From: a virus
Lineage: Duplodnaviria; Caudoviricetes
Virus record (IMG/VR): IMGVR_UViG_2757320919_000001
Coordinates: 70,928 to 134,927 of that record
DNA length: 64,000 bases
Reading direction: 5' to 3' (one strand)
Part shown: piece after piece, positions 48,328 to 50,286 of the stretch
Layout: every line of letters starts with the position of its first letter
How positions within the stretch are numbered: position 1 is the first letter of the stretch
Notes under the pieces: model-generated
Seen by the model: the letters and a program-made list of their open reading frames with translations, nothing else
Databases searched by the model: none
What the model was told of the DNA's origin: nothing
Position numbers and translations under genes: made by a program

Positions 48328-49710
48328 TTAAAAGTCATATCGTTCTTTATTTATAGTTTCAAACATTATTTTTTCAGGGTTTAAATCATTAGTTAATAAA
48401 CCTTTTACTATTGAAGGACTAAACCCTGATATTAAACAAGTTCCATTTTCATCTTTTTTCACAGGTACATTTCCACTTCTACCATTAATATTCCAAAAAA
48501 TTAATTCAGGCATTTTATAACCACTATTTTTAAAAGAATCTCTTATGTATTCAAAATTTGTTTTACCTTGTTGAGCTTCGTCAAATTCCATATCACTTAA
48601 AACAACTAGAGCATCAGGTAAATCTTCTTGTGACAAATTATCAGCTTTTGCTTTATTTAGAATTAAATCAAAAGTTTCACAAAAATTAGTATTCATACCC
48701 CAATTAGATTTTTTTATGGATTTATATTTTTCTTTTAAATCATTTCCTTCTATCTTTACCATTTCAGGATTTGCGGAAAAAGTTATAAAATAATCTTTAA
48801 AATCTTTACCATTTCTTTCACTTAAATACATACCTAAAGAAATTGCTATATTTAAAACAGTTGTACTTCCTTGAACTTCTGTATACATGCTTGCAGAAAC
48901 ATCAATTATAGGGAATAGAGTTTTCTTAGAATCTTCCATCCAATCCTTTTGATTTTTCCACATTTCATTTGCTAAAATATCATTTTTAAACATTAATTTA
49001 ATTATTTCATAAGGATATATTGCGGAAGTATTTACTTTTGATTCACCTTTTATCAATGATTCTTGATAATTTTCAAATCTTTCCCTATCATTTCTTTCAA
49101 AAGCATCATTATACTTAGCCATTGCTTTTGAAGGAATTTTTTCATATTCTATTAAGTTCCATTCTTTAGAACACATTTTATTTTCAACAACACAAGTATT
49201 AGAAGACAATAACTTTCTATAATCTTTAGCATTTAATTTTAATAATTTCATCAATTTTTTGGCTAATTTAGATTTACTTGATTTTTCTCTAGGCATCCAC
49301 TTAGCACATAATTGATTATTAAAATCTAGTATTTTAATTAATTCATTTCCTACTAAATCTAATTGTTTATAAGTTATTAAATCATCAAATCTACCTAATT
49401 CAGGAACTTTTCTAATTATTCTTTTATAAATTTCCTTATCATTTTCTGCAATGAAATCTAAAAATCTTTTAAATATTTCTCTTCTTCCTGCACCTTCTCT
49501 TGCATCTCTTGTCCATAACAATATTCTAGAAGTTAATTCCTTATCAATATTAAATGATTCTTTTACTTTTTCAAAAACATTGTCAATATTATTTTCATTA
49601 GTTGTTCCTATAATAAAAAATAAATCTAGAGCTACATTTAATGAAGAGCTTAATGTTAAAGCACCATTTTCTGTATAAGATAAGTTTGATAGAGAATTAA
49701 CAAATTTCAT
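48328..49710 (-). CDS. DUF2828 / TROVE(Ro60)-like vWA protein
   Basis: TENGA..S..LDLFF, RDAREGAG, GRFDDL, AKWMPRE, DVSASM (MIDAS), SDMEFD, FWN. Confidence 0.8.
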   Translation of the reverse strand: MKFVNSLSNLSYTENGALTLSSSLNVALDLFFIIGTTNENNIDNVFEKVKESFNIDKELTSRILLWTRDAREGAGRREIFKRFLDFIAENDKEIYKRIIRKVPELGRFDDLITYKQLDLVGNELIKILDFNNQLCAKWMPREKSSKSKLAKKLMKLLKLNAKDYRKLLSSNTCVVENKMCSKEWNLIEYEKIPSKAMAKYNDAFERNDRERFENYQESLIKGESKVNTSAIYPYEIIKLMFKNDILANEMWKNQKDWMEDSKKTLFPIIDVSASMYTEVQGSTTVLNIAISLGMYLSERNGKDFKDYFITFSANPEMVKIEGNDLKEKYKSIKKSNWGMNTNFCETFDLILNKAKADNLSQEDLPDALVVLSDMEFDEAQQGKTNFEYIRDSFKNSGYKMPELIFWNINGRSGNVPVKKDENGTCLISGFSPSIVKGLLTNDLNPEKIMFETINKERYDF

Positions 49711-49727
49711 TTTCTTTCCTTTATAAA

Positions 49728-49880
49728 AATCAGGGTATTTAAAAATTCAGATATACTGAAATCACTAGGCACATAAAATCATAAAATATTAATTTGCTGT
49801 AAATACCCTTTTTAATCATGGTACTTTTAGAGAATTCATCATTATCAGTAATGTCCTTAAAACTTTGCTGTTAGTACCAT
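49728..49880 (-). ncRNA. two tandem stem-ACAGCAAA-loop-stem-GATT RNA motifs
   Basis: stems 49732-41/49800-09 and 49818-25/49873-80, shared flanking motifs. Confidence 0.6.
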
Positions 49881-49940
49881 TTAAATGTGTTTATTTTAAA
49901 CACATTTAAGTCTTCATTGAAAACTTAAATGTGTTTAAGA

Positions 49941-50025
49941 TGGTGTAGAAGGATGGACTTGAACCATCAATGCCAAAAGACGCCAGATTTACAGTCTGGT
50001 GGATTACCAATTATCCTACTTCTAC
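49941..50025 (-). tRNA. tRNA-Tyr(GTA)
   Basis: cloverleaf, CTGTAAA loop, long variable arm, GGTTCAAGTCC, encoded CCA. Confidence 0.93.
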
Positions 50026-50043
50026 ATTTATTATAATTATAAA

Positions 50044-50118
50044 TGGCTGCAGATAGAGGATTCGAACCTCTGACTCATCGATTAACAGTCGATTGCACTA
50101 CCGCTGTGCTAATCTGCA
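50044..50118 (-). tRNA. tRNA-Asn(GTT)
   Basis: cloverleaf, CTGTTAA loop, GGTTCGAATCC, CCA. Confidence 0.95.
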
Positions 50119-50132
50119 ATAATTATGTTTAT

Positions 50133-50207
50133 CAACCACAACTTCAATATATTAGAGTTATTGAACAGGATTTGTAATCCTGTACTCTACCAATTAAGCT
50201 ATAGTCA
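50133..50207 (-). pseudogene. degenerate tRNA (ACA anticodon), T-arm replaced
   Basis: intact D arm TAGCTTAATTGGTAGAGTA and CAGGA-TTACAAA-TCCTG; no TTCG loop or CCA. Confidence 0.6.
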
Positions 50208-50211
50208 TATA

Positions 50212-50286
50212 TGGTGGGCGAAACAGGAATCGAACCTATAACCAACCGGTTATGAGCCGGTTGCTCTACCATTGAGCTACTCGCCC
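50212..50286 (-). tRNA. tRNA-Met/Ile2(CAT)
   Basis: cloverleaf, CTCATAA loop, GGTTCGATTCC, CCA. Confidence 0.93.

Follow-up and report, generated by a model that had tools for sequence, protein, structure and literature searches.

What do two small hairpin units encode when they stand between a tRNA gene cluster and a DUF2828/DUF7788 gene in a Campylobacter phage, and is the neighbouring protein their partner? The window examined here is the whole 64,000-nucleotide (nt) stretch at positions 70,928 to 134,927 of the IMG/VR virus record IMGVR_UViG_2757320919_000001, and the units, here called A and B, lie on its minus strand, as do the tRNA cluster and the gene; positions are those of the window unless another record is named. 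A preliminary description, made from the sequence alone, had proposed a protein-bound RNA motif with variable cargo upstream of a TROVE-like gene, serving either as binding sites for autoregulation by the adjacent protein or as processed small RNAs with guide or decoy loops. We put a probability of roughly 0.7 on the reading that units A and B are genes for stable non-coding RNAs of ~70 and ~85 nt, in which a constant handle would be recognised by the adjacent Ro60-like protein and a variable interior would recruit or mimic something else.

Structure of the two units

Both units read in the same order on the minus strand, namely a closing stem of 7-10 base pairs (bp), an unpaired (U)UA-CAGCAA(A), a variable interior, the 3' half of the stem and G-A-U-U, and the tandem arrangement, coordinates and motif set out in the preliminary description were all confirmed. 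Unit A, delimited by sequence and fold as a small RNA of ~67-70 nt (49814..49883, minus strand), has the 5' stem half ATGGTACT at 49880-49873, which pairs with the 3' half AGTACCAT at 49825-49818. One A and then ACAGCAAA (49871-49864) follow the 5' half, the unpaired AA-CAGCAA-A covering 49872-49864; the interior is 38 nt long and the 3' tail is G49817-AUU (GATT, 49817-49814). Unit B, delimited in the same way (49727..49812, minus strand, ~82-86 nt), has the 5' stem half AGGGTATTT at 49809-49801, paired with (T)AAATACCCT at 49741/49740-49732, and the motif ACAGCAAA at 49800-49793, as (UUU)A-CAGCAA-A. Its variable interior of 51-52 nt contains the hairpin UUCAG-UAUAU-CUGAA, and its 3' tail is G49731-AUUU(UU), with GATT at 49731-49728. 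The two closing stems pair perfectly and differ in sequence between the units, as had been claimed, and both are kept in the minimum free energy and centroid folds.

What is rare here is the combined feature and not any single measure, and its excess over chance is proven by the comparative evidence presented in the next section. The octamer ACAGCAAA occurs five times in the window against 2.8 expected, and at least five times in 19 of 100 shuffles, so that by itself the octamer shows no enrichment. Across the 134,927-bp genome, ACAGCAA combined with a stem of at least 8 bp and a GATT tail is found only in units A and B. A third ACAGCAA hairpin (genome position 61239, plus strand) was rejected as a member because its 10-bp stem is all A/T, its tail is TGAT and its score with the covariance model R2, described below, is 17.1 bits.

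The region belongs to a Campylobacter phage of the genus Fletchervirus and is 93-97% identical to CP8, CPX, CP30A, Los1 and the F3xx phages. Stems and motifs of the units are invariant in all seven of the seven aligned Fletchervirus sequences, the differences being confined to the interiors. In CP39 the interior of unit B is replaced by a different, shorter one with stem and motif unchanged; in Los1 an A replaces the tail G after unit A.

The interior of unit A holds a hairpin of its own, with a 5-bp stem and the 7-nt loop CUGAUAA at 49841-49847 (minus strand), shaped like an anticodon loop (U at position 2 and A at positions 6-7). Other Fletcherviruses have CUGCUAA at this place, a change of the middle 'anticodon' letter that preserves the form of the loop. 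A promoter and terminator consensus scan found nothing at units A and B.

Conservation of the module beside DUF2828 genes

A descriptor of the module (a stem of at least 7 bp, 0-3 nt, CAGCAA, 12-150 nt, the 3' stem half and G) was applied to a first set of 16 DUF2828 loci, comprising 89.5 kb. It returned 27 matches on the strand of the gene and one on the opposite strand, against a mean of 0.86 and a maximum of 4 in 50 shuffles. The module lies beside the DUF2828 gene, on its strand, in Cronobacter S13, Klebsiella KP2025, Shigella Sf13, Aeromonas 4_4572, Listeria LP-039, Staphylococcus SEP9, Mycobacterium UPIE, Enterococcus Porthos, Bacillus PJN02 and Vibrio BUCT194, and on two IMG/VR contigs; it spans phages of Proteobacteria, Firmicutes and Actinobacteria, usually with 2-7 copies per locus. 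Its geometry is fixed, with the first stem base 10 nt before the C of CAGCAA, and the canonical form has a 7-bp stem, a 3-nt linker of consensus UUA (U in 20, U in 22 and A in 28 of 35), CAGCAA, an A-rich run before the 3' stem half and G-U-U. Because CAGCAA is fixed by the descriptor, only the linker and the register count as independent evidence of a likeness to the Class I motif discussed below.

Larger samples of DUF2828 loci were fetched with a protein profile, and the module was sought in the strict register within 3 kb. The preliminary description had made its reading depend on the presence of the motif beside homologues, and it is present on the sense strand at 48 of 79 IMG/VR loci, with one antisense locus, and at 43 of 80 loci from GTDB genome contigs, with six antisense loci. 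The corresponding matches number 75 sense to 1 antisense (shuffle mean 1.8) and 77 sense to 6 antisense (shuffle mean 0.9). When the descriptor was relaxed to allow one mismatch, a core of C[AC]GCAA and a register of 9-11, sense matches occurred at 63/79 and 66/80 loci; this version was too noisy to be relied on, since antisense loci rose to 22 and 42.

Two covariance models were built, R1 from 25 sequences and R2 from 23 sequences that include none from Campylobacter, the stem structure being given by hand in each case. On the window, R1 scores unit B at 42.2 bits, unit A at 38.3 bits and the next match at 19.2, and all of its matches across loci are on the strand of the gene. R2 ranks unit B first (32.4 bits, E 2.6e-4) and unit A second (23.2 bits, E 0.026), the next match again reaching 19.2, and unit B is also its best match in the whole genome. 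In five complete phage genomes (430 kb), all 17 matches of at least 32 bits lie within 4.5 kb of a DUF2828 gene and on its strand, and two of the four weaker matches are far from such a gene. Among the 68 loci without a strict match R1 rescued two, both with a CCGCAA core. A search of the loci without a match for an enriched alternative 6-mer core found none.

In a variant subfamily (L051 4427-4494 and L098 2782-2849, both plus strand), UUCCGCAAA replaces UUACAGCAAA, whereas the register and the CUGUU/CCGUU end are unchanged.

The stems covary. Pairing holds in 89.4% of stem cells over 35 matches; shuffles give 57.1%, none of the 500 being as high as the observed value, and sliding the partner gives 34-45%. 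Changes on both sides occur in 7/7 stem pairs, with 85 such cells against 22.6, in an alignment (A4) that was fitted to the model. In the MAFFT alignments the 3' stems are not in register for every row: 18 of 25 rows are in register in A2 and 18 of 23 in A6, and A3 was discarded. An independent register count, whose 35 rows include three mis-registered ones, has 32-34 of 35 rows paired at each position and all four Watson-Crick types at positions 4-7. The proposal that the module is a conserved RNA linked with the neighbouring family of proteins is thus borne out by its recurrence in distant phages on the strand of the gene, with covarying stems and an invariant unpaired motif.

The neighbouring protein

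The gene next to unit B (48328..49710, minus strand) encodes a protein of 460 amino acids that matches Pfam PF25043 (DUF7788) at 8.7e-52 and PF11443 (DUF2828) at 6.9e-25. An AlphaFold2 model built with 30 aligned homologues has a predicted local distance difference test score (pLDDT) of 87.2 and a predicted template modelling score (pTM) of 0.86. When this model was compared with the PDB using Foldseek, the ten best matches were all Ro60/TROVE chains at full length, headed by 1yvp_B, Xenopus Ro60 with RNAs (E 8e-9, template modelling scores 0.63/0.56). Other matches include 2i91, 1yvr, 9kop (a 'Trove domain' entry) and 9l5y (Ro60 of Thermus phage phiLo); D. radiodurans Rsr (2nvo) ranks 13th, and E ranges from 8e-9 to 1e-5 over the listed Ro60 chains. 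The predicted fold has the Ro60/TROVE plan of a HEAT-repeat ring with a C-terminal vWA domain. On this model the DUF2828 protein is predicted to have the Ro60 fold (TROVE ring plus vWA), in agreement with the earlier label of TROVE-like, and by analogy with Ro60 it is presumed to be the protein partner of units A and B.

Sequence comparison gave no such signal. Pfam at E up to 0.01 returned only DUF7788 and DUF2828 and no TROVE family, phmmer of the protein against the PDB returned no matches at E up to 10, the phiLo chain included, and the DUF2828 family profile reached a best E of 0.35 against solved Ro60 chains, which is not significant. Sequence methods are blind to the relationship with Ro60, and DUF2828/DUF7788 is therefore a separate family with Ro60 architecture. 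This family is large, with tblastn matches in 707 phage records, 703 of them covering at least 80% of the query, and with ~5,000 matching clusters at 50% identity for a giant-virus-like homologue; it also has eukaryotic (Mucoromycota) members.

Outside the window (G000:C1:41550-42077, minus strand) there is a second, partial relative, which matches the protein's N-terminal half with 33% identity over 182 residues (25-206) and E 4.6e-15, and it accounts for the two places that are found per Campylobacter phage record. As a second RNA-linked locus it was rejected, the RNA match nearby being unconvincing (16.8 bits).

Transcripts of the units

The RNA-seq evidence consists of assembled contigs from four runs, which count as one because they represent one sample from one study. 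Contigs pile up on a stretch that holds both units (49727..49909, minus strand) and that we take to yield abundant transcript(s), with 146-699 mostly short contigs per run. Word depth summed over contigs, which is a poor measure of level, is 25,000-600,000 over the units (49710-49914), 204-522 over the gene (49300-49709), 0-164 over the gap at 49915-49955 and 520-1860 over the tRNA region (49956-50283), such that the units exceed their flanks 100-1000 times in contig depth. A step of about a thousand-fold between adjacent stretches of one DNA molecule means that this is not DNA carry-over. Contig ends and loose ends cluster at 49725-49727 (RNA ...CCCUGAUUU) and at 49880-49909, and the cover begins inside the 3' arm of a neighbouring 15-bp hairpin, at 49904-49909. 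We regard these data as a strong hint that the units yield very abundant, separately accumulating RNA, which favours the processed small RNAs that had been one of the two earlier suggestions.

A few contigs of low depth join the 3' end of unit B (49727) to the 5' end of unit A (49877-49886). The join 49882->49727 has a depth of 122 in run X1 and 47 in run X4, or ~0.1% of depth, and these joints may be library chimeras, a circular or ligated form, or a tandem variant.

Comparison with known RNA families

Particles of Ro60 and Y RNA are a classic RNA-surveillance system. To our knowledge, Y RNAs have so far been tied to canonical TROVE proteins and to the GNCGAA/CGAA motif. Like YrlA (RF02553), the units adjoin a gene with a predicted Ro60 fold on the same strand, their 5' and 3' ends pair into a stem around a large internal region, a short conserved single-stranded motif stands near the 5' end, and there are several copies per locus. 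Many members of the CAGCAA family also carry a T-arm/D-arm module, and the short forms without it resemble YrlB; among 63 long family members, 30 contain a GTTCRA T-loop. Two members in KP2025 align to the Rfam YrlA model, at 40.1 and 34.3 bits (gathering score 69), with CAGCAAA falling on YrlA positions 2-8, the site of the GNCGAA Rsr motif. In the portions of PMC4201824 considered here, YrlA is described as lying near the Ro60 gene on the same strand, with GNCGAAN0-1G near its 5' end and a tRNA-like T/D-arm domain, and YrlB as a shorter form that carries the motif. The 22 phages in Table S2 of that paper were picked by TROVE annotation, and a term search of its supplements, one file excepted, returned no Campylobacter, Listeria, Staphylococcus or Felix entries.

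By analogy, the Ro60 of phage phiLo with its RNAs Yrl1 and Yrl2 is the closest experimental precedent. As reported in parts of PMC12135203, phiLo Ro60 binds these two CGAA-type RNAs, which are encoded upstream of its gene, in electrophoretic mobility shift assays, and it also complexes with host PNPase. As in phiLo (PDB 9l5y), the Campylobacter phage encodes a protein, here of 460 residues and with a predicted Ro60 fold, and small hairpin RNAs just upstream. Unlike the units, however, Yrl1 and Yrl2 were picked by the canonical CGAA motif (PMC12135203, in part), and the abstract and sections 8, 17 and 21 of that paper make no mention of the CAGCAA family.

The only Rfam family to recur on CAGCAA hairpins, in four separate phage lineages, is RF01414, that of the dictyostelid Class I RNAs. 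Its scores are 25 and 22.6 bits in KP2025, 22.9 and 22.1 bits in SEP9 (a third SEP9 copy being unmatched), 30.7 and 26.9 bits at the IMG/VR loci L032 and L034, and 15 bits for unit B, with unit A unmatched. Every one of these phage scores (15-30.7 bits) is below the 41.5-bit gathering score, and in a 66-kb search a match at E up to 1 occurred in only two of nine loci. Class I RNAs are described in parts of PMC7919456 as eukaryotic RNAs of ~60 nt with tens of dispersed copies, each with its own DUSE promoter ~60 nt upstream, a short stem at the ends, a single-stranded motif of 11 nt following the 5' stem half (U3, C6, C9, A10 and A11 nearly invariant), a variable remainder and a 3' CUGU end. 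The same source reports them as absent outside Dictyostelia and gives the RRM protein Rnp1A/CIBP as their sole proven direct binder. In a DdR-21 pull-down, GuaB, NdkC, CIBP/Rnp1A and the uncharacterised DDB_G0281243 were recovered (bioRxiv 10.1101/2020.04.05.026054, in part).

When the Rfam Class I consensus, GaUcuC-CUUACAGCAAU...GagAuC-UG, is set beside the phage consensus, AGAnnAC-UUACAGCAA...GUnnUCU-GUUU, they agree in plan and share a nine-letter motif: the ends are joined by a short stem, the unpaired motif follows directly after its 5' half, the interior is variable, the size is ~60 nt and the 3' end may be of the CUGU type. The 11-nt motif (CCUUACAGCAA in the Rfam consensus) is matched by UAUUUACAGCAA in unit B and by UACUAACAGCAA in unit A. 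All five nearly invariant Class I positions fit the phage consensus, and the CCGCAA variant alters position 7, outside those five. Set against the Class I 5' G, which pairs with the C of the 3' CUGU, the termini as read from the DNA are AG...CU-GAUU in unit B and AUG...CAU-GAUU in unit A; across the family, pair 1 is A-U in 25/35, pair 2 is G-C in 24/35 and the base after G is U in 20/35. In contrast to Class I RNAs, the units belong to a Campylobacter phage, so the DUSE promoter of a dictyostelid genome does not apply to them. When a dictyostelid DUF2828 protein was sought, homologue searches from the phage protein and from the giant-virus-like homologue returned only metagenome proteins. We consider it a tentative and rather doubtful possibility, suggested by resemblance in architecture and motif, that phage CAGCAA hairpin RNAs and Class I RNAs are one family, the ligands of DUF2828-type Ro60-like proteins; DDB_G0281243 would then be a candidate for a DUF2828-type protein that binds Class I RNA.

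Interpretation and alternative explanations

In the reading that we favour, the handle would consist of the 7-10 bp helix joining the ends, the single-stranded (U)UA-CAGCAA(A) and the G(A/U)U tail that follows the 3' half. If the analogy with Ro60 and Y RNA holds, this handle (terminal helix, single-stranded UUACAGCAA and 3' G-tail) would dock on the ring of the Ro60-like protein, and the variable interior would be the working end, recruiting or mimicking another molecule. In many other phages that working end may be the tRNA-like T-arm/D-arm module, as in YrlA, and in the Campylobacter phage it may be short hairpins, one of them with the anticodon-loop-like CUGAUAA. During infection the probable target of the ribonucleoprotein is RNA quality control or repair, or else host RNases. 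A role in RNA repair, quality control or counter-defence is suggested because of the tRNA neighbours, the RtcB and RNA ligase genes that occur at the Listeria LP-039 and Xanthomonas XbC2 loci, and the precedent of phiLo Ro60 with PNPase. We infer the binding of the units by the DUF2828 protein, the docking mode and the biological role from the analogy with known Ro60 particles.

Several results weigh against this interpretation. The motif of the CAGCAA family is (U)UACAGCAA and not the GNCGAAN0-1G of YrlA, and units A and B have no match to the Rfam YrlA model at E up to 10. With z = -0.62, the unit region is ordinary in folding energy and unremarkable in thermodynamic stability. Four of the 16 loci in the first set have no match to the 7-bp-stem descriptor (L013, L014, L025 from Xanthomonas XbC2 and L016 from Vibrio nt-1, the last with a 6-bp candidate only) and none of the four was matched by R1; among the 159 sampled DUF2828 loci, 66 have no member within 3 kb even with R1. 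The alignment behind the covariation count was fitted to the model, and the RNA-seq support comes from a single sample and study, in the form of contigs that reveal neither strand nor true ends.

The units also differ from YrlA in their partner, a DUF2828/DUF7788 protein that is without a significant sequence match to solved Ro60 chains; they have no tRNA-like T/D-arm domain, no match to a tRNA model and no match to any Rfam family at its threshold. Given the different motif, the lack of a tRNA-like part and the lack of a YrlA match, the units are therefore not YrlA members; they probably work like Y RNAs without belonging to the YrlA family.

The alternative that survives best, although we think it unlikely, is that the units are cis operators in the 5' leader of the DUF2828 mRNA, through which the protein would repress its own translation with no RNA acting in trans. 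The local arrangement fits such operators, as unit B ends 21 nt before the ATG of the DUF2828 gene, just ahead of the Shine-Dalgarno-like AAGGAAAG, and a contig over the gene extends into unit B, to 49745-49750. At the 100 loci with full flanks, where the median distance from module to gene is 165 nt, 62 of the 98 strict matches are likewise upstream of the gene; however, 35 are downstream (and one inside), and in Sf13, SEP9 and UPIE every copy is downstream, those of Sf13 being interleaved with tRNA genes. The 2-7 copies per locus, and a contig depth over the units that is 100-1000 times that of the mRNA, also fit poorly with operators. Autoregulation as the main role, the other earlier suggestion, is thus disfavoured by the downstream copies and by their scatter among tRNA genes in Sf13. 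Operators are nonetheless compatible with, and not exclusive of, RNAs that form a particle with the Ro60-like protein.

Still less probable is a view in which the units are protein-independent elements of tRNA operons (processing signals, terminators or tRNA remnants) and the DUF2828 linkage reflects no more than shared tRNA regions. The units do lie directly after three tRNA genes, GAUUUUU follows the stem of unit B, some relatives have tRNA-like arms, and tRNA genes occur within 3 kb at 25 of 79 IMG/VR loci and 16 of 80 GTDB loci. Against this, no tRNA gene lies within 3 kb at 60 of the 91 motif-bearing loci, the strong matches in whole genomes gather around the DUF2828 gene rather than other tRNA regions, and the invariant unpaired CAGCAA with its fixed 10-nt register is foreign to terminators and is accompanied by no tRNA model match. 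The least probable view, that the RNAs are decoys or guides whose loops pair with or mimic host or phage RNAs independently of the Ro60-like protein, would account for interiors that vary between phages around a constant handle and for the anticodon-loop-like CUGAUAA (CUGCUAA in other Fletcherviruses), but it leaves the strict DUF2828 linkage unexplained, and the interiors of units A and B, compared with the phage genome only, have no match longer than 13 nt (best non-self E 0.047), which also counts against the guide loops proposed earlier.

Genomic context

Upstream of the units on the minus strand is the tRNA cluster (49941..50286), which holds tRNA-Met, a degenerate tRNA-like element, tRNA-Asn and tRNA-Tyr; the tRNA genes were called by ARAGORN, with Rfam tRNA scores of 72.1, 69.3 and 65.1 bits. 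The degenerate element (50124-50208, minus strand), between tRNA-Met and tRNA-Asn, falls just short of the tRNA gathering score (28.9 bits against 29) and was not called by ARAGORN. In the related phages F336 and CP8 the same cluster holds extra tRNAs (Leu, Met, Arg). Between tRNA-Tyr and unit A there is a perfect 15-bp hairpin (49896..49938, minus strand), and 13 nt of its 5' arm (TAAACACATTTAA) are repeated directly before unit A, at 49893-49881 (minus strand); this repeat next to unit A is conserved in the Fletchervirus relatives, and the hairpin may be a processing or boundary element. UvsY- and UvsW-like genes are located further downstream of the DUF2828 gene.

The tRNA gene cluster of phage T4 encodes the stable RNAs C and D, which are small and of unknown function. 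The units resemble them as small RNAs encoded with phage tRNA genes, a likeness by description, and T4 is absent among the organism names shown for DUF2828 matches.

Other RNA features were noted at DUF2828 loci. In Listeria LP-039 the DUF2828 gene and the three CAGCAA hairpins that go with it are preceded at ~1 kb by a match to the ROOL RNA (L020 463-1014, plus strand; 90 bits, gathering score 99.1), and an RtcB-type RNA ligase gene lies 1.3 kb downstream. In Cronobacter S13 (L015 3881-4001 and 4011-4123, plus strand) two tRNA genes of 121 and 113 nt have a similar insert of ~40 nt (...ACGCAAACTGA(C/T)AAGTTTGTATTCAGCA...) in the anticodon region, which may be an intron, and the two genes directly precede a CAGCAA RNA with a tRNA-like insert. 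On two IMG/VR contigs a CAGCAA hairpin is followed, ~200 nt downstream, by a near-threshold match to the cyanobacterial small RNA NsiR1 (L032 4963-5017 and L034 4967-5021, plus strand; 37.7 and 38.6 bits, gathering score 39).

Conclusions

Here we have characterized two hairpin units of a Campylobacter phage as members of a module that recurs beside DUF2828 genes. The literature, with supplementary files only partly searchable, yielded no description of the CAGCAA motif or of DUF2828-linked RNAs, and the CAGCAA hairpin RNAs are apparently a widespread, undescribed Y-RNA-like family. A ribonucleoprotein of Ro60 type with a Y-like RNA is of a known kind; a bridge to an orphan class of eukaryotic RNA is unexpected. 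If that bridge is true, Class I RNAs would be Y-RNA-like parts of a DUF2828 ribonucleoprotein, acquired from or shared with viruses, and the match provides a hypothesis on the ligands and function of Class I RNAs, a question that is 20 years old. For the phages, a second and very large family with the Ro60 fold gains a candidate RNA partner with its own recognition motif. With such a partner, a function might be assigned to 'DUF2828' and to stretches left unannotated in many well-used phages, among them relatives of FelixO1, Listeria Pecentumvirus, Staphylococcus SEP9, Enterococcus Schiekvirus, mycobacteriophage UPIE (genus Bronvirus) and Campylobacter Fletchervirus. Finally, the linkage with tRNA clusters and RNA ligases, together with the apparent abundance of the RNAs, points to RNA defence or repair during infection.

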